Shown: positions 2,462 to 54,139, numbered from the stretch's first letter. The stretch is 64,000 nucleotides of DNA from a virus (IMGVR_UViG_2778261268_000002); one strand, 5' to 3'. The notes: generated by a model from the sequence alone, not told the origin. Numbers and translations: made by a program.

Positions 2462-3359
2462 GCACTGGAAAAACATTACTATTTATAAACTTTCTCGTGA
2501 GGCGGATCTGACCGACTTAGAAGATAAAAAGAAAATGATCCTTTTCACGCCATGCGGTAGTCAGGATATGGCCAAGTTCGGTTTTGTATCTCCATTTGGT
2601 GATAATTCCGAAGTTATCGCTATGCATGGAAATGGTTTTATCCTTGTTGAAGCAAAGCGCGAAACAAAAATTCTTCCCCCGCCGGTTATCCAGCGAGCTA
2701 TTCAAGAAAAAATTGAAAAACTTGAGCAAGAACAAGCGCGTAAACTGAAGAAAACAGAGAAGGACTCCCTGAAAGACGAAGTTCTGCATTCTCTTCTGCC
2801 ACGAGCTTTTTCAAAGTTTTCTGTTATCCAGGCGATCTACGACGGTTCAACTAAACGTATCTATATCAATGCCAGCGCGCGGCAGGCAGAGGATATGCTC
2901 GCGCTTATGCGTAAGTCTCTGGGTTCTCTTCCTGTTGTTCCCCTGAGTGTTGAAAATCCCATTGAATTAACGCTGACCGACTGGGTACGTGATGCTCGTG
3001 CTCCACAGGGATTTCAAATGGGGGATGCGGCAGAACTTAAGGCAGTGCTTGAGGATGGCGGTATCGCCCGAGTGAAAAAGCAGGATTTGGGAAGCGATGA
3101 AATTTCCACACACCTGGAAGCTGGCAAGCTCGTCACAAAGTTGGCACTCGACTGGCAGAACCGCATTAAATTTACACTGGACCATAACTTCAGCCTTACC
3201 AGCGTCAAATTTGCGGATGAATTGCTTGAGCAGAACTCTGATATTGATAGTGAAGATGTAGCGCAGCGACTGGACGCAGATTTCTTCCTGTTAACCAGTG
3301 AAATTTCGTGCCTGGTTGATGCTCTGGTAAATGCCCTGGGCGGAGAGGCTAAGCAGTGA
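2454..3359 (+). CDS. hrdC: recombination-associated protein RdgC homolog
   Basis: N-terminus ([16 protein letters not shown]...[19 protein letters not shown]) closely resembles E. coli RdgC; start ATG at 2454 in frame with ORF 2340..3359. Confidence 0.85.
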
Positions 3360-5374
3360 GAGAGCTGTGCTATGGATCTGTTTGCAGTGGAATTGAAGCC
3401 GCGAGCATTGCCTGGGAACCGTTGGGTATGCGTCCGGCGTGGTTTGCTGAGATCGAGCCTTTTCCATCTGCCGTTCTTGCGCACCGCTGGCCCCATGTCG
3501 CCAACCTTGGCGACATGACAAAACTCGCCCAAAAAGTCCAGGCAGGAGAAATTGAAGCCCCTGATATGCTCGTCGGGGGTACGCCTTGTCAGGCATTCAG
3601 TATCGCGGGCTTACGTGGTGGGCTTGATGATGAGCGCGGCGCGCTAACTTTGAAGTATGTGGAGCTTGCAAATGCAATTGACGACAAACGGGCTGAGTCC
3701 TTCCTCAAACCAGCAGTTATCGTCTGGGAAAATGTCCCAGGAGTCCTGTCATCAGCAGATAACGCGTTCGGATGTTTCCTTGCCGGATTGGCTGGAGAAG
3801 ATGCGCCATTCGAACCTGGTGATCGACCTGAATCACGAAAAAGTAATACGTTCTGGCGGTGGGATGTCAAAACCGGTTGCCATGCTCCAAAGTGGCCGCA
3901 GTGTGGTTGTATTTATGGACCGCAGCGAAAAGTGGCCTGGAGAATCCTTGATGCCCAATACTTCGGAGTGGCACAACGACGCCGACGCGTGTTTGTTGTC
4001 GCAAGTGCTCGAACAGACCTCGATCCCGCAACGGTACTTTTTGAGTTCGAAGGCGTGCGCCGGAATATTGCGCCGAGCAGAGGCGAGGGGAAGGAAACTA
4101 CCAGATATACTTCAAACATCGCTATCAGAACTTGCGATGATACAAACATAATTGCCATGGCACATGGGCAAGGAGGGGCTGAGATAAAAACCGATAATTC
4201 GGCACCAACTTTGACATGTAACCATGAAGCACCAATTGTATTGCTCGGCGACGGTAGAATGCGCCGTCTTACCCCTGTCGAATGTGAAAGGCTGCAAGGT
4301 TTTCCTGATGGGCATACGTTGATCCCGACGGAAAAGCGTAAAAAAGTTAATTCAGATGAACTGGCATATCTTCGCAATCACTATCCAGATTTAAGCGAAG
4401 AAGAGGTCGCGATGCTTGCAGCTGACGGACCGCGTTACAAAGCGATCGGCAATAGTATGGCAATACCAGTAATGTGCTGGATTGGAGATCGGATTACTAA
4501 GGCCGTATGTCGGCAGAAAGAAGGAAGTGAAACAAAAGAGCGAAAAGTTAAACCAGCGGCAGAATTCGAACGGTCCATATTCAAATGGGCTGGTGGAAAA
4601 TTTGGTGTTCTGGAACAAATCTTTCACTATTTGCCAGAAGGGAAGCGCCTGATTGAACCTTTCGTTGGTGGCGGAGCTGTCTTCATGAATGCCGGATACC
4701 AGGAAAATCTGCTAAATGATGTGAATGCTGACCTGATTAACTTTTACAAGACTCTGCAACGCGAGGCGCATTCACTTATCACTCTGGCACATCGTTTCTT
4801 CCTGGACTACAACACCCAGGAGGGATTCCTGGCAGTACGGAATGCGTTTAACAAACAAGTCTATGATGATTTACATCGCGCAGCGGCGTTTTTGTTCCTG
4901 AACCGACATTGTTTTAATGGATTGACGCGCTACAACCAGGCCGGTGAGTTCAATGTCGGTTATGGGAAGTATAAAACTCCGTATTTCCCATTACAGGAGA
5001 TGGAAGCCTTCCTCGGTGCGGAAGGGCGGTCTGAGTTTGTATGCGGTGATTTTGCAGCAGTGATTGAAGCTGCCGGAGAAGGAGATGTCATCTTTTGCGA
5101 TCCGCCGTATGAACCGCTCCCCAATACAGAGGGGTTTACGAACTATTCCGGTCATGACTTTAAGTTTGAAGAGCAAAAACGCCTGGTGTCTCTGTTGACG
5201 GATGCTCATCGCCGAGGTGCAAAGGTACTCATTACTAACAGTGGCGCGCCAAACGTCAGAGAACTTTATCAGGACAGTGGCTTCAGAGTGGAACCTCTCT
5301 TTGCCAGACGTTCTGTGTCTTGTAAGGGAGACACTCGTGGTGTTGCTCATGACGTTATGGCTATATTGCTCTAA
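3356..5374 (+). CDS. dmt: bifunctional DNA methyltransferase: N-terminal C5-cytosine MTase domain fused to C-terminal Dam-like N6-adenine MTase domain
   Basis: N-terminal half has PCQ ([12 protein letters not shown]) and ENV (VIVWENVPG) motifs; C-terminal half has FKWAGGK and DPPY motifs typical of Dam. Confidence 0.85.
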
Positions 5375-42939: not shown

Positions 42940-45900
42940 TTATGCGTATTGTTGGATGACGGCCAGAACGTCCGCCACGTTGTGTTTTGTCTCGATAATC
43001 CACCAGTTACCCAGGAAATCGCTGTTCTTCGCCTTCGCTGGCAGCCAGCGAGCGCCGAATTTCGCCTTGATTGCGTCTTTCGCACGGAAAAGAACGCCTT
43101 TCATGCCTGAGGCTTCCTGAAGCCCAAATACCTCGCCAGCGGCGAATTTTGGTGCGTACATCATCTCCAGGTCGGCGGTGGATACGCGATAATTCAGACC
43201 AAGAGACTGAGCTATGCTGGTGGCATCACCCTGTATTGATGATAACTCTTCTTGTTTCTCGTTTCTGGCGGCAATTTCTTCCTCCGTGATGTTGCCAAGG
43301 GCCAGGTTTATCCGATCAGCGTCGGCCTGTTTCTCTTCATCGGTGCGCCCGGCAAGAACCGTGTTAATACTCTGCAATATCTCCACATGATTCTTGCGCA
43401 TGCTGAGCAATTCCGGCGTAACCTCGTTAAGGTCCACCAGCCCAAGGATGGCAAGGTCGGTAAACATCGATACTAGGTTGTAGGTCATGCGATAGCTGAG
43501 TTGCCCATAGGCTGATGGCAACTGCACCGCATCCATTTTATAGGCATCCATAAATTTAGAGCCGTCGTTTACGACATCCGCAATTGCCGGTGTGATTTTC
43601 CCTGTGGTGGCGGCCTCCCTGATTGCTGTTACCCACGATTGAGTCAGCGCGGCGACTGCATGATTCAGATTGACTTTCCGTTCTGCTGCAATGCGCGCGC
43701 TTGCTGCGTCCATTGCCTGCTTGATCTCGTCTTTATTGCTGTAAATGCCAATGGTGCCAAACTGTGCTGTGGTGATCTCATAATCTGACGCCCGGAACTC
43801 ATTGGTACCGAAAATGGCATTGGTGACTTCAAGTTCAGAATCCCCGTTACGAGTAGCCCCCTGGCTTGTTTTCTCCGGCATTCTGGCGATCGCATCCGCT
43901 ATTTTCTCCTGAATTGCTTCAGGGGATAGCGTATCTCCGTATGACGCGATTACATCGCCATAATTGGAGCCAAACAGTTCAACCAGGAATGCTTCTGCCG
44001 AACGGATCTGGCGGTTATTCCCTTCCGACATCATACCAAGCACCCATTTTGCAATTGACGACTTCAGCGCGCCGTCACGGCGATCCGGGTAAACCGCATG
44101 CTTCAGTGGGTCCGTATAGGTACCAACAAAATCAATGCTATAGCCTGACTCTGTAGTCTGAACGCCGTATGAGTCAGTGATTTTGATCATGCCGCGCTGC
44201 TGGAAACGGTAGAAATCGTCACAGGAAACGATGTCGTTAATCCCGGCGATGGAGACGCCACCACTGATTTTCTGCATAACAGCATCTTCATCGGGAGTTA
44301 CATCAACCTGTTTATCCAGCGTCTTCACATCCCAGTTACCAGATTTGGTGCCTTTGAAGGTGAAGATGATCTCCACGTCTGCGCGCTGGCTGTCGAAGTC
44401 CAGCGACTTAATGCGAACGATATCACCGGCACAATCGTAGTATTGGCCTACACGCCATGAGCGATCGCCGATAACAAGGAACTCACTCGCATGGTTAACC
44501 AGGTCAGGATCAACATCCAGAATGCCTTTATTTAATGCATCCTCCACCAGCGGGCGCAGGCGTTTGATATCCGTCGCGGCCTTCTGAGTACGGTTCAATA
44601 ATTTCTCATAGCGGGAGATGGCTTGAGAGATATTAGCCTTGCGCTGAATGGCGCTTTTCAACGACGCGCGATACTGTGCTAACAACATACGGTCTGTGTG
44701 ATGGACACTCCCCCAGCGTGCCTTCCAGTCTGCGTTATCCGCTGCCTTGGCCATTGCCGCCTGTTTGAATTTAGCTACCTCGGCGGTGGTCTTTTCAAGT
44801 TCCGCTTTGCTTCGCTCTAATTCAGCGGTAAGCACCTCCACATCCTCACCAGCTGCGTGCTGCGCCTTGATGTAGTTCTGAAGGTCGATAGTAGCCTGTT
44901 CTTTCTGGCGAGCGCGTTGCGCGGCTTTCGCCTTATCCATTTGAACCTGCATCATTGCCAGACGTTCGCCATCATCCTTAGCGGTATACATCTGCATTTC
45001 GATCATATCGTTGGCGTCGGCGTTCTCCATTTCTGACTTATCTGAACGGAGGATATCGGAGATCCAGCCTGCTTTACGCTTCAGCGTCTTCAGTCGGTAT
45101 TCATCGAAAGAACCCTTGCCGCAGTAGTAGTGAACGCGAACGCTTGCACGGTTGGAGCCAACTCGGGCACCGCGACCGTTTCGTTGCGCAATACTGGCTG
45201 GAGTCCATGGCAACGTCAGATGATGGATGTCAGTCGTTCCTCGATGCAGGTTGATACCCACCTCTGCCTTTTTGTTGCAGATGATGATCGGAGTCCGGCC
45301 CTCCTGGAAGTCGGCTGCAATCTTTTCCAGACCGCCCAACGACATTTCATTTTGCTGCGCGATATAGGCGTCATACAGAGCCATTTGCTCGTTGTATTTC
45401 GCTATCTGTGCATCTGTTGGTTCATCCGGTAACTCTTTCGGCGGTTTAACCGCTTTCAGTTTCTTACCGGTTTTACCTGCCTCGGCAACCGTCTGAGCAT
45501 TCAGTATCCCCACCTTTGAAGGTTCAAGGTTAAGAGCATTGCAGATAATGCGCTTGAGCTTCTGGTGCTGCGTTTTTTCATCGGTGAAGATGATTTGCTT
45601 ACCTTCCGGGAAAAACTCCTTCAGCGTGGCAATCAGCTTCGCGTATTTGGGCGTAACGGGGTGAGTTACGGTCTGTTCGTCAATGCCAAACCTGGCCAGG
45701 CGCTTATTCACTTCCTGCTCGAACGCTTCCGGAACCTGCAACTGAATAAACTCGCCCTTATCTATCAGGGAGTATTGCGATTGCTGCGTGATTGAATCAT
45801 CACTGTCGTCGTCTTCGCTGGTGGCTTGTTTAGGCAAACTGTCTGCCAGCTGCTGCACCGCATCGGCGTACTCCGGCAGGAAACGATAGGTGATCCGGCG

Positions 45901-48900
45901 ATAGTACAGGTCCATGTCAGTACATACGCGGTCCATATCCCTGATTATTGAGAAGATCGGACGGGCTTTCTCGTGCTCAATCACGCCGTCTTCATTGACC
46001 GAGGTCGTTACACCATTGTTGGCTTTGGCCGCCGCTTCCGCCTGCTGACGCAATTCTTCATACGCCGCCAGTTGTTCTTCAGTAAGTGGTGCATCCTGCT
46101 GGTGTTCGTCCAGTTCCGGGATCTCCACGGTATCCTTAACGTCTTCCGCCGTTTTAAGCGTTGTCCAGCGATGGAATATGCCGCGCAGCGCATCAAGGTT
46201 TTCAAAACCCACCAGCGCCATTTTTTCTTCAACTTCGCCGCTGATTTTCTGTACCGTTTCCAGCCTGGTCTTGCCGAAGAATTTTACGAAGTCATCAGGA
46301 CTGTAGATCCCCATCTTCTGCCAGTATTCCTTCGGCAGAACATGAGAAAGCATGTTGTATGCATCGATCGGGGTGTTAACGACTGGTGTTGCAGTCAGGA
46401 GAACCGGTCCGCGCCCGCCATTCTTTTTCATCAAGTACGCGTTTTTGATTGCCATATCTCGCGCCGATTGCGCCACCGCGCTGGTGGGCAGATAGGCCAG
46501 CTGTGACGCTTCGCGACCATTTTTATAGCTATTGCGGTAGTTGTGGCCTTCGTCAGCAATCACGCTGTCGAAGCCCATATCCTCAAAGTACGGATACTTC
46601 TCTGCTTTTTCGGTACCGGTATCTGAATACTCCGACAATACCCGGCGACGCGCCGCCTCTTTGCGGTGGGAGTCGGAGTCCATTGCGCTGGCTACGCGCC
46701 CGGCGGCAACGAAGTCATAAAGCATGTCTTGTGCATGCTCATCTACGGTGTCATCACGTAGCGGAATGCGGGCGTATTGTTCTTTGGTAAACACGACTGC
46801 ACGGTAATTTGAGTGCGGGATCGCGTTCATCCGCGCCGTGATAGTGGCTTCATCTGCCAGCTTAAGAGCATCGCGCATAACTGGAGTGCCATCAGTACCA
46901 AGAACAGGTTTACCGTTCTCATTGAGCACCGGCACCTGGCGAATCTGATCGCCATCCATCAGCACATCAAGACCGACGAACAAGTAGTTACTGAATGCCT
47001 CTTCACTCAGGAATTCTTTTGCTTCGTAATACCAATTTTCCAGCACTGATTTAGGCACTACATACGCAGTACGGGTGGAGCGACCGTTCTCATAGTTGAA
47101 CGCCTCAAGCGCCAGCGCGGTCGTGGTTTTACCCAGCCCGGTGCCGAAGCCCAGGATGCCGCGCCCATCTTCGGACAGTCGGCGCACCTCGCTATTCTGG
47201 TAATCAAATGGCTGGCGCTTACCGCTTAATCCCTTCAACCCAAGCGGATCGCCAGAGTGTTCATACGGGATATTGCTATTGAACACATCGTTGTATTTGG
47301 TAACCAGTTCATCGTAGCGATCGTGCGTCTTGATCCACTTATTGAACTGGTCCTCAAGCAGTGCCATCTGCTCGCGGTAGCCGTTCGCCGTCGCGCTATC
47401 TTTGCCACCGATACGCGCACCATTGAGATACTTTTCCAGCTGTGCCGGGAACCCGGTCGCGTTTTCACCTGATTTACGGTCCCACTCGTAGCGGATCTCG
47501 CCTGTTTCTTTATCCTTGCGCTGGACGACACCGTATCGGTGCCCGACGAACAGGCCATCACTACCGTGATAGGTGTCAGAAACCATTTCGTCGCCTTCCA
47601 GCTGCACTGACTGCACATAGCGCAGATCCGGATAGCCGTTTTCCTGCAAAAATTCCAGAATGACGGAACGGTCGAACCAACGGCTATTGAGCTTAAAGCG
47701 GATATTCTCTGCTGGCGTCTTGATGCGCTTCTCTTCGATCGCTGCCAGCTGATTAAGGACGTTGTTCTTTACTGGACCGTCGGGGAGTGTGGCAAGGAAT
47801 TCCTGTTTTGGAGCCACTATCTCGTTAATGTCGCCGCTGGTGGCGCGGGCGAACGGAACAATCCCGCCATACGGTGAAACCGCAATGCCAGGGGTGCTGG
47901 CCAATAAATTAAGCAACTCGTCATCACTGGCTGGCAGTTCACCGGTAAACGCAAGGCGGAAATCATCGAGCTGGATTGGATCGCGAGTGAGATCACTGTA
48001 GAGATAACGCAGGGTGTCCTGATAGCTGGTGGAGTCATAACTGGCGCTGGAATCATGCGTAACCAGTTTTCCTGTCAGCTCGTCAGAAATAGCGCCATCC
48101 AGCTTAATTGCACCACGGAAAGCAAACCAAGCGCGCGCACCGCTTCCTGATAATTTCGCTATAGGACCGCGACCGGGGTTACCAAAACGGTCAATCTCTG
48201 CCTGCAAACGGGATACCAGAGAAAGGCGCTGCTGTTCGATTTGTTCAGCACTATGCCCGGCGGCCTTCATATCCTGATATTCAATTAACATCCGGCCAAT
48301 CATCGCCCCGCGATACAAGCGTTCACGGTATTTTTCAGGCTGGCTGTTAATCCAGTCCACCAGCTGCACCATATCGTCGCTGATTGATGTGGTGTACTTA
48401 TCGCGGACATTTGCCATCTGGGTAAATGTCATACCGAGACGGCCTTCTGTTGTAGTCAGGTTACGCTGAAGAGCCTCCCAGCTATCCGCGCCATAACTGG
48501 CAGCATCGATCTTAAGTTCCTTCCCGGCATCAGCTTCAATCCAGCGACCACCAGCATATTTTTGCCATACGCCATTAATCAGGCGCATTTCCCCTTCACC
48601 AACAACGTCTGCGGTCGGTGACGGTTCAGCCATATCGAGCAAAGACCAGTCGATACGGCTTTCGAAACGATGAATCAGCTTCGCTTTAAGAGCCTGGTTA
48701 TCAATCTGACCGTCGGCACGAACCTCAATACGCCCCTGGAAGCCCTTTTCCTGGGTGCCATGAACAAACCGGCGGCCATCCTTTTCAAACCACTTGCCAG
48801 AAATAAACGTTGGCCAAAGCACATTTGCCGATTCAAGAGTGCTTTCATCCACCAGGGGGATTTTCTCAGCCATCTCTGCCGGATGTTTGCGCATCAGCAC

Positions 48901-49707
48901 CACATCTACGACCGTACTGGTCCCGTTTGCGTCAAAAGTACCGGTAGGCAAGCGGTGGGCACCAAGAAATTCAGCTTTCCGTGATAGGCGCAGGCGTAAC
49001 CGCTTCATGTTTGAACCTGAAACAATGGACGGCGGCACAATCACGCACATGAATCCGCCTGGCTTTATCTTGTCCAGCATGCGGAGCATGAAGTAAGAAC
49101 CCATGTCCGTTTCTTCTGCGTAAGGCTTATCGATGTTGCGTGTGTTATCACGACCGCCGAACGGAACGTTACCCACAACATGGTCGAATGAATCGTTAGG
49201 CGTGCTTACAGCCAGTTGTTCGAACGGGGAAATCTGTACGCTGTCTTCCGGGTGTAACAGCTGGTTTATACGACCGGAAACACTGCTGATCTCAGTCGCG
49301 GTCATCACCGTACCAACCGGTTTTGTCTCATTAAAAACGCCGGTTCCCGCCGATGGTTCCAGAGTGTTACCTACGTCCGCGCCGTAGAGCTTCATGATCT
49401 CCCAGACACCTTCAGCGATCGGCTTTGGTGTGTAATATTCGGAGACGGACCCGCCAATGCCGCCTTCACCGGTGTACCCAGCCAGGATCTGGCGCTGTTC
49501 ATCTGTCAGTGTCGCGCCGTCCACCAGTGAATTAAGCAAATCTATCGCCTTCTGATTCGCCTCCCGGCGCAGTCGGTCATAGCTTTTGCCTTCCACCTTT
49601 TCCACGCCGTATTTAATCGGCGCTCGGTGAGATGTTATTGCCCTAATGTATTTCAATATTTCGCTGACACTTGAACAGCGAAACACCCCCATAGATAGCT
49701 TGTTCAT
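42940..49707 (-). CDS. darB: giant anti-restriction protein: N6-adenine methyltransferase domain fused to DExH/SF2 helicase (DarB-like)
   Basis: 2255 aa; N-terminal MTase motifs (SAGTGVF, GNVPFG), central Walker A (GFGTGLGKTT), DEGH box (ADEGHNYRN), helicase motif VI (QRNGRGAR). Confidence 0.85.
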   Translation of the reverse strand: MNKLSMGVFRCSSVSEILKYIRAITSHRAPIKYGVEKVEGKSYDRLRREANQKAIDLLNSLVDGATLTDEQRQILAGYTGEGGIGGSVSEYYTPKPIAEGVWEIMKLYGADVGNTLEPSAGTGVFNETKPVGTVMTATEISSVSGRINQLLHPEDSVQISPFEQLAVSTPNDSFDHVVGNVPFGGRDNTRNIDKPYAEETDMGSYFMLRMLDKIKPGGFMCVIVPPSIVSGSNMKRLRLRLSRKAEFLGAHRLPTGTFDANGTSTVVDVVLMRKHPAEMAEKIPLVDESTLESANVLWPTFISGKWFEKDGRRFVHGTQEKGFQGRIEVRADGQIDNQALKAKLIHRFESRIDWSLLDMAEPSPTADVVGEGEMRLINGVWQKYAGGRWIEADAGKELKIDAASYGADSWEALQRNLTTTEGRLGMTFTQMANVRDKYTTSISDDMVQLVDWINSQPEKYRERLYRGAMIGRMLIEYQDMKAAGHSAEQIEQQRLSLVSRLQAEIDRFGNPGRGPIAKLSGSGARAWFAFRGAIKLDGAISDELTGKLVTHDSSASYDSTSYQDTLRYLYSDLTRDPIQLDDFRLAFTGELPASDDELLNLLASTPGIAVSPYGGIVPFARATSGDINEIVAPKQEFLATLPDGPVKNNVLNQLAAIEEKRIKTPAENIRFKLNSRWFDRSVILEFLQENGYPDLRYVQSVQLEGDEMVSDTYHGSDGLFVGHRYGVVQRKDKETGEIRYEWDRKSGENATGFPAQLEKYLNGARIGGKDSATANGYREQMALLEDQFNKWIKTHDRYDELVTKYNDVFNSNIPYEHSGDPLGLKGLSGKRQPFDYQNSEVRRLSEDGRGILGFGTGLGKTTTALALEAFNYENGRSTRTAYVVPKSVLENWYYEAKEFLSEEAFSNYLFVGLDVLMDGDQIRQVPVLNENGKPVLGTDGTPVMRDALKLADEATITARMNAIPHSNYRAVVFTKEQYARIPLRDDTVDEHAQDMLYDFVAAGRVASAMDSDSHRKEAARRRVLSEYSDTGTEKAEKYPYFEDMGFDSVIADEGHNYRNSYKNGREASQLAYLPTSAVAQSARDMAIKNAYLMKKNGGRGPVLLTATPVVNTPIDAYNMLSHVLPKEYWQKMGIYSPDDFVKFFGKTRLETVQKISGEVEEKMALVGFENLDALRGIFHRWTTLKTAEDVKDTVEIPELDEHQQDAPLTEEQLAAYEELRQQAEAAAKANNGVTTSVNEDGVIEHEKARPIFSIIRDMDRVCTDMDLYYRRITYRFLPEYADAVQQLADSLPKQATSEDDDSDDSITQQSQYSLIDKGEFIQLQVPEAFEQEVNKRLARFGIDEQTVTHPVTPKYAKLIATLKEFFPEGKQIIFTDEKTQHQKLKRIICNALNLEPSKVGILNAQTVAEAGKTGKKLKAVKPPKELPDEPTDAQIAKYNEQMALYDAYIAQQNEMSLGGLEKIAADFQEGRTPIIICNKKAEVGINLHRGTTDIHHLTLPWTPASIAQRNGRGARVGSNRASVRVHYYCGKGSFDEYRLKTLKRKAGWISDILRSDKSEMENADANDMIEMQMYTAKDDGERLAMMQVQMDKAKAAQRARQKEQATIDLQNYIKAQHAAGEDVEVLTAELERSKAELEKTTAEVAKFKQAAMAKAADNADWKARWGSVHHTDRMLLAQYRASLKSAIQRKANISQAISRYEKLLNRTQKAATDIKRLRPLVEDALNKGILDVDPDLVNHASEFLVIGDRSWRVGQYYDCAGDIVRIKSLDFDSQRADVEIIFTFKGTKSGNWDVKTLDKQVDVTPDEDAVMQKISGGVSIAGINDIVSCDDFYRFQQRGMIKITDSYGVQTTESGYSIDFVGTYTDPLKHAVYPDRRDGALKSSIAKWVLGMMSEGNNRQIRSAEAFLVELFGSNYGDVIASYGDTLSPEAIQEKIADAIARMPEKTSQGATRNGDSELEVTNAIFGTNEFRASDYEITTAQFGTIGIYSNKDEIKQAMDAASARIAAERKVNLNHAVAALTQSWVTAIREAATTGKITPAIADVVNDGSKFMDAYKMDAVQLPSAYGQLSYRMTYNLVSMFTDLAILGLVDLNEVTPELLSMRKNHVEILQSINTVLAGRTDEEKQADADRINLALGNITEEEIAARNEKQEELSSIQGDATSIAQSLGLNYRVSTADLEMMYAPKFAAGEVFGLQEASGMKGVLFRAKDAIKAKFGARWLPAKAKNSDFLGNWWIIETKHNVADVLAVIQQYA

Positions 49708-49773
49708 TGGTAATCCTTAACAAGTGACTAGTGTTAAATTCCGTTCAAACACGATGCGAATTATTCTAATTAA

Positions 49774-52504
<2,731 letters not shown>

Positions 52505-53850
52505 CACCCTCCACGCCCTGACGGGCGTGGATTCCTGCTACGTTCAGGCTGTCGCCTGAATCATTTCGGTGGGTTCCTGCTTCAACGGACGGCCTGACTG
52601 CACCATCCCTCCACAGGCAAGTACGGCGTGCCCCGCCGCTAAAATGTTACGAGCGCCGTTTACATCGGCGTTCGCTGTATATCCACATACCTGGCATCTG
52701 AATTTACTTTGTGACAGGCGATTTTCTTTCGCGGTATGACCACAGCACGCGCAACGCTGGCTTGTGTACGCTGGCGGCACTGCCAGTACCTGACCACCAT
52801 GCCAGAGCTGCTTATACTCAAGCTGGCGGCGCATTTCATACCAGCCCTGATCCAGTATCGAACGGTTTAAACCTGATTTTGCCCGGACATTGCGACCCGG
52901 CTGACTTATCGTACCCGCCGCTGACTTTGACATGTGTTTAACCTTCAAATCCTCAATGACAATCATTGCGTGGTTTTTGCTGATGATCGTTGTGACTTTA
53001 TGAAGGTAGTCTCTGCGGATATTTGCGATACGGGAGTGCAGTTGCTGTATTTTGCGTTTCTGCTTCTGCCAGTTGTTGCTGAATCTGACCTTGCGGCTTA
53101 ACTGGCGCTGAAGTCTCGCCAGCTTTTTCTGGTTTTTCTGGAAACTGTTTACAGGCTCAAAGACTGTGCCATCTGACAGCGTGGCGAGCCTGGCCACGCC
53201 AGCATCCAATCCGACCATTGATGCTGAAGGGTGAGCCGGAGTGGATACTTCACTTTCTGTCTGAATACTGATGTACCATTTACCGCAGGACTGGCTGACA
53301 GTGACATTTTTCACAATCCCCGTGACCTGCCGGCTGTTACGGTAGCGCATCCAGCCAAGTTTCGGCAGAAAAATACGGCTGTTTTCCTGGTCGAGCTTAA
53401 CACCCTGCGGGTAGCGGAATGCATCATTCTGTCCCCGCTTTTTGAATCGGGGAAAAGCCGCCCGCTTCTGGAAGAAATTTTTGTAGGCCCGCTCAAGGTC
53501 TTTCAGTGACTGCTGCAATGGCTGTGAGGGAGAATCTTTAAGCCATTCGGTTTCAGTGTCTTTTTTCCACTCAACCAACCAGGAAGCCATTTTCGTGTAA
53601 GGGATGTATTTATTCCCGGCCTCATAATTCTCATTCTGAAGTGCCAGTGCACGATTGAAAACGAAACGACAAGCTCCGGCAAAGAGCCTCATTTGACGCT
53701 CCTGTTGACCACCGGGTCTTAACTGGAATTTAAATGCTTGTAGTCGCTTCATCCCACTATTTTAAACAAAAACAGTTAGGTGGAAAACCACGCCTTATAT
53801 CCCCTCCCTGAAGGACGGGATTTTACGGCGCACCGGATAACCACCAAAAA
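52505..53850 (-). mobile_element. IS200/IS605-family element carrying only tnpB (IS609-like), inserted between head and lysis genes
   Basis: TnpB ORF flanked by subterminal hairpin CCACGCCCTGACGGGCGTGG at ~52511-52530; no tnpA present; boundaries approximate. Confidence 0.6.
52544..53752 (-). CDS. tnpB: TnpB (OrfB) RNA-guided nuclease of IS200/IS605 family, IS609 InsQ-like
   Basis: 402 aa; RuvC-I ([10 protein letters not shown]), RuvC-II (IVIEDL), zinc finger CACCGH...CQVCG, RuvC-III ([10 protein letters not shown]); near-identical in outline to E. coli InsQ as recalled. Confidence 0.9.
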
Positions 53851-53873
53851 TAACCCCGGCGGCTTCCGGGGTT
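53846..53873 (-). terminator. rho-independent terminator of the lysis operon
   Basis: AACCCCGG-cggctt-CCGGGGTT followed on the minus strand by TTTTT. Confidence 0.6.
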
Positions 53874-53884
53874 ATCGTTAACTA

Positions 53885-54139
53885 TTATCGCCTTCGCCTG
53901 CGTGCCATATATTTGCGCACCGCGCGGCGTGGACAATCTGAAGCGGTTTCTTTCTGCTGCATCAATCTCGCAGCCATGCTCAAAAATGTCAGGCACAGCC
54001 GAAGCCCGGCATATAATAGCGGTTCCAGTGGCCACGTCTCATTGAGCACATATACCGCCATGAAAATCGAGTCGAAAACTATCGCCGCCAGCGATAACTT
54101 CATTGTCGAAAGTCGGCGGAGCTGCCGGAGTTTATTCAT
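53885..54139 (-). CDS. small membrane protein in lysis cassette
   Basis: 84 aa with hydrophobic segments and Arg-rich C-terminus, overlapping lyz stop. Confidence 0.45.
   Translation of the reverse strand: MNKLRQLRRLSTMKLSLAAIVFDSIFMAVYVLNETWPLEPLLYAGLRLCLTFLSMAARLMQQKETASDCPRRAVRKYMARRRRR

Follow-up and report, generated by a model that had tools for sequence, protein, structure and literature searches.

The window analysed here, a 64,000 nt stretch of viral DNA (IMGVR_UViG_2778261268_000002, one strand, 5' to 3'), derives from a P1-like phage-plasmid and carries on its minus strand, between the head processing gene pro and the lysis genes, a 1336 bp insertion (52501–53836) which is almost certainly an IS609-type, tnpB-only insertion of the IS200/IS605 family that has lost its transposase gene tnpA. 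Our best explanation, to which we assign a probability of about 80% as a whole, is that this is a non-autonomous insertion inherited with its plasmid lineage, whose TnpB would act as an RNA-guided nuclease in retention and homing of the element. The nuclease and homing steps, which are modelled on ISDra2 and a Geobacillus TnpB (PMC10055086), are considered probable, at a clearly lower level of confidence than the identity of the element. The feature itself is not new, since Venturini et al. (2019, PMC6906374) have described an IS609 insertion at the same place in the P1-like plasmid pJIE250-3, with cleavage sites TTAT/TCAA, and the gene is annotated in RefSeq in these plasmids as 'RNA-guided endonuclease InsQ/TnpB family protein'. 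What is added here is the definition of the exact ends, the covariation of the transposon-associated motif (TAM) with the DNA guide, a covarying omega-RNA scaffold, a predicted guide with its natural targets, and the occupancy of the site.

Boundaries, ends and identity of the inserted element

BLAST comparison with phage P1 (NC_005856) revealed that window positions 51800–52500 and 53837–54700 are contiguous in P1, while the 1336 bp in between are without counterpart, and the ends of the insert at 52501 and 53836 are therefore unambiguous. Similarly, the flanks but not the middle match P7 and the other P1-like phages of the phage collection. The P1 junction, ...GGTTAT/TTAAAC... (the slash marking the point of insertion), is split precisely with zero duplicated bases, i.e. 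without target-site duplication, as is typical of IS200/IS605 insertion 3' of a specific tetra- or pentanucleotide. On the minus strand the left junction reads ...GGTGGTTAT/CCGGTGCG, which in the orientation of tnpB is ...GGTGGTTAT followed by CCGGTGCGCC..., while the right junction in this orientation is ...GGAGGGTGTCAA/TTAAACGGGTTGATTG.... The target tetranucleotide TTAT, which is P1 DNA and is predicted to serve also as the TAM, lies immediately 5' of the left end (53837–53840, minus strand). An earlier note on this DNA had correctly placed the element between pro and the lysis genes and had proposed the P1 alignment that now defines its ends; its span of 52505–53884 was inexact, as it misses the first four nucleotides (TTGA) and includes 48 nt of P1 DNA with a terminator hairpin shared with P1.

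Both ends display the organisation expected of the IS200/IS605 family, namely subterminal imperfect palindromes and a conserved right terminus rather than terminal inverted repeats, with guide tetranucleotides located 5' of each hairpin and complementary to the cleavage sites. The left end (62 nt, 53775–53836, minus strand), which is conserved in the family, includes the DNA guide AAAA (53821–53824) and an imperfect subterminal hairpin (approximately 53800–53820), the latter read directly from the sequence. The right-end hairpin (52510–52531, minus strand) is preceded by GAAT (52531–52534) and followed by ...TGTCAA, of which the last four nucleotides (TCAA, or TTGA on the plus strand; 52501–52504) constitute the terminal cleavage tetranucleotide, as identified from the termini of relatives. 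Since TTAT is matched by AAAA on the left and GAAT by TCAA on the right, both ends of the element are intact. In IS608-type transposition, the DNA-guide tetranucleotide recognised by TnpA pairs with the cleavage site, the respective pairs of cleavage site and guide being TTAC/AAAG on the left and TCAA/GAAT on the right. The element (TTAT/AAAA and TCAA/GAAT) thus resembles IS608 of Helicobacter pylori in its subterminal hairpins, its tetranucleotide guide logic and the lack of target duplication; it differs in that IS608 is autonomous with tnpA present, and the two have no close sequence similarity.

These assignments are borne out by relatives of the element, eighty of which, from other species and mostly Enterobacterales (52–94% protein identity), were collected and aligned in subsets. 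Nearly all intact relatives in a 47-sequence alignment end in GGAGGATGTCAA (TGTCAA), after which unrelated DNA follows, so that the right-end terminus is fixed independently of P1. The left flank is TTAT in 20 of 32 relatives and TTAC in a further eight (28/32 for either), and it covaries with the left-end guide in 24 of 25 informative cases (17 TTAT/AAAA and seven TTAC/AAAG, with one exception). The wider family flank is T-rich, with the consensus TTTAT or TTTAC. A single departure was noted at the right end: position 52507 is G in the window copy and most P1-borne copies (GGAGGGTGTCAA) and A in all 28 other aligned relatives, in the E. albertii plasmid copies and in K-12 (GGAGGATGTCAA). The G is a derived change at a near-invariant position, seven nucleotides from the right terminus, which belongs to both the TnpA substrate and the predicted omega-RNA tail.

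The IS609 annotated in E. coli K-12 (NC_000913, 1503161–1504908; insQ/ydcM, with tnpA as the pseudogene yncK) served as the reference and is collinear with the element apart from the tnpA segment, at 92.4% identity over the 62 nt of the left end and 93.2% over the 1252 nt of tnpB and the right end, in agreement with the description of the element as IS609-like in the earlier note. The K-12 element is 1748 bp in length and chromosomal, whereas that of the window is 1336 bp and resides on a phage-plasmid; 435 bp including the divergently oriented tnpA are missing from the latter, with 23 nt in their place. Both are flanked 5' by TTAT (TTTAT in K-12), terminate in TGTCAA and are inserted just past a terminator-like hairpin and T-run. 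This location of the TTAT target was observed in the window, in K-12 (L004, 5162) and in a tnpA-less copy on another phage-plasmid (L152), which suggests that terminator tails are favoured landing sites.

A Y1 (HUH) transposase TnpA, which autonomous members of the IS200/IS605 family encode, was not detected anywhere in the 64 kb window, the element included, by tblastn with six IS609-family TnpA proteins, as the earlier note had surmised. The single match with E<0.001 (53780–53848, 23 aa) lies on the left end, was obtained only against the long C-terminal tail of one open reading frame (ORF; L065), and was discarded as a transposase candidate as it reflects homology of left-end DNA. The element is therefore a non-autonomous derivative which can be moved only where TnpA is provided in trans; IS609 copies with an annotated intact tnpA alongside exist on some E. 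coli chromosomes. The element occurs only once in the window. Copies lacking tnpA, of 1336–1337 bp and 93–96% mutual identity, are present at different sites of other phage-plasmids, again with a TTAT flank and a TGTCAA end, from which it follows that the truncated form is mobile. These copies (L150, NZ_CP183090; L151, NZ_CP075488; L152, NZ_OY754396) occupy, among other sites, one beside icd/ant and one downstream of the terminase gene pacB. Furthermore, tnpB stretches of 93–94% identity were found in the filamentous phage If1 (U02303/NC_001954, ORF348), Morganella phage IME1369_01 (KY653118) and the Aeromonas jumbo phage AP1 (MT713136), and IS609-type elements thus occur in quite different phage genomes.

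The proposal that the element is instead a P1 backbone gene which P1 itself has lost draws on its presence in plasmids of several species and on nothing more. It carries next to no probability and is refuted by the uninterrupted junction in P1, P7, the other P1-like phages of the collection and 446 of the 492 replicons from complete E. coli genomes that carry this P1 region, by the precise IS609 ends (TTAT at the left and TCAA at the right), and by chromosomal copies of 90–95% identity in about 5000 of 5426 complete E. coli genomes. The suggestion of the earlier note that the element is an insertion and not a backbone gene is thereby upheld.

TnpB, the predicted omega-RNA and its guide

The tnpB ORF (52544–53752, minus strand; stop codon at 52544–52546) encodes a protein of 402 aa, which was assigned by ORF calling, Pfam, NCBIfam and structure alignment. 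It matches the Pfam families HTH_OrfB_IS605, OrfB_IS605 and Cas12f1-like_TNB, all above their cut-offs, and the NCBIfam model guided_TnpB ('RNA-guided endonuclease TnpB family protein') with a score of 389.6 bits, the cut-off being 100. Additionally, it aligns over nearly its full length to the ISDra2 TnpB structures 8h1j and 8bf8 (E ~5e-52), an alignment in which the RuvC acidic residues D183, E267 and D363 all coincide with the catalytic residues of ISDra2. The zinc-finger cysteines C334, C337, C353 and C356 are likewise present, and the protein thus displays the D-E-D triad, the CxxC...CxxC zinc finger, the length of about 400 aa and the N-terminal helix-turn-helix/WED-REC region of TnpB. 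This bears out the earlier description of an intact minus-strand TnpB with RuvC and zinc-finger motifs. A promoter-like site (TTTCCA, 16 nt spacer, TAAAAT; 53759–53786, minus strand) lies a short distance upstream of tnpB, where the loss of tnpA has created a new junction; it matches the consensus at 9 of 12 positions in a scan and is not functional evidence. A Type V CRISPR-Cas (Cas12f-like) system would be accompanied by an adjacent CRISPR array, and no CRISPR-like repeat array was found within 49000–58000.

The hairpin highlighted in the earlier note (CCACGCCCTGACGGGCGTGG, 52510–52531, minus strand) begins six nucleotides past the pro stop codon and has a perfect 9 bp stem, in which 52510–52518 pair with 52523–52531 across a 4 nt loop. 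It is more than a chance palindrome, since it is conserved across relatives with compensatory changes at four of its nine pairs. A role as terminator was considered and rejected, as no T-run follows the hairpin on either strand, a terminator scan was negative, and it is conserved as a right-end hairpin. It is the last helix (helix 6) of the omega-RNA scaffold and also the right-end hairpin that is bound by TnpA on single-stranded DNA, which agrees with the proposal in the earlier note that it lies where the omega-RNA is encoded.

The predicted scaffold as a whole (52501–52644, minus strand, approximately 144 nt) was derived with RNAalifold from 29 relatives. The consensus fold consists of 37 pairs in six helices, nine of these pairs being supported by compensatory double changes, and 97.9% of cells are paired on the consensus structure. 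None of 500 column shuffles reached the observed covariation score or the observed number of covarying pairs, and pairing fell to 35–51% when partners were slid by one to three columns as a control. A structured RNA therefore spans the 3' end of tnpB and the right end, as expected of an omega-RNA, and it extends to the right-end terminus. The tnpB reading frame covers approximately 100 nt of this structure, which points to a constraint at the RNA level in addition to that on the coding sequence. An Rfam scan (by E-value) of 52200–54200 returned no family at its gathering score; sub-threshold matches to HgcC (22 bits, threshold 50), sot0042 (17.6 bits, threshold 88) and RAGATH-18 (26 bits, threshold 44.9) fall on the same stretch as the scaffold. 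No curated Rfam family thus applies, and covariation within the family was used in its place.

The guide was predicted by position only, as the 16 nt of DNA directly 3' of the right end on the sense strand of tnpB (TTAAACGGGTTGATTG, 52485–52500, minus strand). It consists of P1 DNA and is antisense to the 3' end of pro. No other copy with up to two mismatches is present in the window, in which two matches with three mismatches both lack a preceding TTAT, and the guide copy adjoining the element is itself preceded by TCAA rather than by the TAM. The comparison of the nucleotides beyond the right end with other sequences, as suggested in the earlier note, showed that TTAT followed by the guide occurs at the empty pro/lydE site of P1 relatives. 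As this is the only TAM-flanked target found, the likely role of TnpB is the known retention/homing function.

This mechanism has been demonstrated for related TnpB proteins, and the TAM of one of these, that of ISGst2, is TTTAT and resembles the TTAT of the element (PMC10055086). The TnpB proteins of ISDra2 and of ISGst2 (Geobacillus) have the protein architecture and catalytic residues of the protein described here, and share with what is predicted for the element a guide RNA over the 3' end of tnpB and the right end, and a TAM identical to the target motif of the transposase. Conversely, they are only approximately 40% identical to it or less, and the activity, TAM and guide length of the IS609 protein are predictions. 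The sole mention of IS609 TnpB activity found in the literature concerns its purification for a trans-cleavage screen, without a result in the main text.

On the basis of these systems, the following course of events is proposed. The element would have entered the P1-like phage-plasmid by single-strand 'peel and paste' transposition, landing 3' of TTAT past the terminator between pro and the lysis genes, and would now be inherited with that plasmid lineage, with mobility only where TnpA is supplied in trans from a chromosomal IS609. TnpB would bind the omega-RNA, the 3' 16 nt of which would be transcribed from the flanking pro sequence, and would recognise the same motif as that targeted by TnpA, in this case TTAT. 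The complex may then cut the donor joint (TTAT followed by TTAAACGGG..., which is TTAT and then TTAAACGGGTTGATTG), in other words the empty pro/lydE site, which excision may have re-created or which a P1 relative in the same cell may carry, and repair or recombination from an occupied copy would restore or spread the element. The target exists in nature, as P1-like plasmids with an empty site are common.

The position of the element next to the lysis genes and the complementarity of its guide to the 3' end of pro might also bring to mind a domesticated, nuclease-dead TnpB-like regulator of neighbouring phage genes (TldR-type). Such regulators have lost RuvC residues, C-terminal sequence and transposon ends. 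None of these losses was observed here, as the protein is full length, both ends are intact, and the complete catalytic triad with the zinc finger contradicts this explanation. The element is moreover absent from most P1 relatives and the guide site adjoining it lacks a TAM, and we regard a regulator of this type as very improbable.

Occupancy of the site and the case for retention or homing

The site is empty in 446 and occupied in 22 of the 492 E. coli replicons introduced above, while 46 of 59 P1-like contigs of IMG/VR carrying the P1 region are empty and nine are occupied. The remaining four contigs carry TCAA in place of TTAT and no element. Among PLSDB plasmids, 40 are occupied at this site, and these originate from E. 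coli, Salmonella enterica, E. fergusonii and E. albertii. The divergence of same-site copies from the window copy amounts to 0.4% (E. coli and Salmonella), 1.4% (E. fergusonii) and 2.4% (E. albertii), and that of their flanks is similar. Comparison of tnpB with the same-site copies in the E. albertii and E. fergusonii plasmids yielded a ratio of non-synonymous to synonymous substitution rates (dN/dS) of 0.15–0.16. All nine full-length collinear copies that were checked retain an intact ORF, one IMG/VR contig (L022) having been left out as it is rearranged within the element. This pattern is consistent with an insertion of some age that selection for TnpB function has maintained. With the element missing from many P1-like genomes and both its ends and its catalytic residues preserved, the data contradict the two outcomes that the earlier note had set against its own reading, i.e. 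a tnpB with degraded ends in all P1-like genomes or a loss of catalytic residues.

Several observations weigh against our best explanation. The related TnpB of IS608 is inactive in published assays (PMC10055086). The derived G at 52507 falls in the 3' tail of the omega-RNA and in the TnpA substrate, and could weaken the activity of either. The match upstream of tnpB to a promoter is weak, and transcription from pro would run antisense through the element. Most of the 46 empty IMG/VR sites, namely 39, bear a single mismatch at guide position 9; the other seven match the TAM and all 16 nt of the guide perfectly and speak in favour of the explanation. Furthermore, the population pattern fits simple vertical inheritance with recombination in the flanks as well as it does homing.

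The first two of these points would also suit an inert passenger, inserted once and now immobile, with an inactive nuclease, which persists only because its intergenic position does no harm and its plasmid lineage is successful. The occupied E. coli replicons, only 22 in number and all with the same variant, and the lack of tnpA on the plasmid segment are likewise consistent with such a passenger. Against it stand the dN/dS of approximately 0.15 among same-site copies of E. coli, E. fergusonii and E. albertii plasmids with the ORF intact throughout, the preservation of both ends and of the omega-RNA helices, and the sister copies without tnpA at other phage-plasmid sites, which imply that this form is mobile. 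We therefore deem an inert passenger unlikely, though it is the strongest of the competing explanations.

A more active role may also be envisaged, in which TnpB and its omega-RNA cut empty-site P1 relatives, incoming or co-resident, and so exclude them or convert them to carriers in the manner of an inter-phage weapon or gene drive. Resistance alleles in P1 populations would in that case be represented by the T allele at 52492, which would produce a seed mismatch, and by the loss of the TAM (TTAT to TCAA). Such a drive would account for a guide and TAM that match only the empty site of P1 relatives, for the TCAA allele in four of the 59 contigs, and for the association of the element with C at the single-nucleotide polymorphism (SNP) 52492 within the guide target, which is found in six of six occupied contigs vs five of 40 others. 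Association with flanking SNPs is complete only at this position and is gone beyond approximately 100 nt. However, the guide match is unspecific, since the guide of every IS605-family insertion matches its own empty site. No excess polymorphism was seen in the guide target, in which one common SNP per 16 nt compares with a background expectation of 0.46; the TAM-less allele is that of a lineage of different structure, in which the ImmI module is inserted beside it; and occupancy is low (4–15%). Both the weapon or drive and the interpretation of these alleles as resistance are accordingly thought improbable, and less probable than the inert passenger. With regard to the retention/homing function that we favour, the SNP pattern of the flanks does not separate homing from vertical descent, as both models predict it.

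Further observations concern atypical alleles at the site. In the published plasmid pJIE250-3 (NZ_MN510445), the insertion (3201–4536) has the same location between pro and lydE, the same orientation and the same length as in the window. Its nt 1–85, which comprise the left end and the tnpA-deletion junction, are identical to the window copy, whereas nt 86–1336 are 99.6% identical to the chromosomal IS609 of K-12 and 6% diverged from the window copy. This element is therefore a chimera, and none like it was found elsewhere in E. coli RefSeq. The flanks of pJIE250-3 differ from the window by only 1.3–1.8%, and the replacement runs to the last base of the right end, for which ordinary homologous recombination offers no easy explanation; a TnpA-mediated deletion from right end to right end after integration of a circle may have been responsible. 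An independent second insertion at the same TTAT was also considered and is unlikely, given approximately 600 TTAT sites in the window (both strands combined) and the identical 85 nt, and replacement in situ is the more likely origin.

At the position equivalent to 52501/53837, the TAM-less lineage (L029, L035, L038 and L041 from IMG/VR, and L145, NZ_CP058684) carries no element, and its sequence is TTTAA-TTGAC-CACC as against TTTAA-ATAAC-CACC. In these genomes TCAA, the last four nucleotides of the right end, replaces TTAT, and Pro ends in N followed by TGA as in the occupied allele. They bear the T allele at 52492, and the ImmI module (icd, ant) is located between the terminator and lydD, 32 nt from the site. 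The exchange of ATAA for TTGA requires only two substitutions and could be the footprint of an imprecise excision, a TAM-less escape allele or a coincidence. Four members of this lineage (L035, L038, L041 and L145) and pE2865-1 (L002) additionally lack the 6.8 kb darB gene, which is present at 42940–49707 of the window; in its position, the annotation shows no more than a short 'N-6 DNA methylase' remnant.

A different rearrangement was identified at 3700–3745 of NZ_CP016549 (L003), a plasmid of E. coli O177:H21, in which 31 nt of the right end come after pro and lead, across the hairpin loop, into an inverted right-end tail (GGAGGATGTCA) and then ddrA, the lysis cassette and ssb being missing from the junction. 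The arrangement suggests that a crossover within the palindromic right-end hairpin deleted the DNA between two IS609 copies lying tail to tail. Were the weapon or drive described above to operate, the chimera in pJIE250-3 and this hairpin-mediated deletion would also be signs of active remodelling of the plasmids.

Effects on neighbouring P1 genes and significance of the element

The insertion alters the coding sequences at the site minimally. The element supplies the stop codon of pro (51485–52504, plus strand, by comparison with P1), TGA at 52502–52504, as well as the last base of the final codon, which is changed from AAA to AAT (K to N), while the original stop was TAA. In P1, the 3' end of pro is overlapped by that of the predicted lydE (putative antiholin; 53823–54035, minus strand, also by P1 comparison), and the insertion lies inside the 3' end of the latter ORF. 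The ORF now terminates in the left end of the element, and the C-terminus of LydE is changed from FKRID to SGAP, while lydD is unaltered. A backbone terminator hairpin (53852–53873), read from the sequence and located at the same place in P1, lies outside the element between the convergent pro and lydE/lydD/lyz units; on the minus strand the TTAT target comes after this hairpin and its T-run. The element is thus downstream of both convergent late units, and its effect on their products is confined to the final residue of Pro and the final five of the predicted LydE. An effect on late phage expression, as raised in the earlier note, is unsupported, and nothing found indicates a role in P1 late gene expression.

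The element is real but a routine insertion sequence, and as found it matters little. Its value is that of a clean natural example, in which the ends, the TAM (TTAT) and a predicted guide are defined and tnpB is under purifying selection in situ. Hundreds of sequenced P1-like plasmids provide empty, occupied and TAM-less alleles side by side, and the carrier is a genetically tractable phage. P1 is thus a convenient system in which to ask if TnpB retention or homing operates on a phage-plasmid in nature, and the same system could reveal an effect on the competition between related phages.

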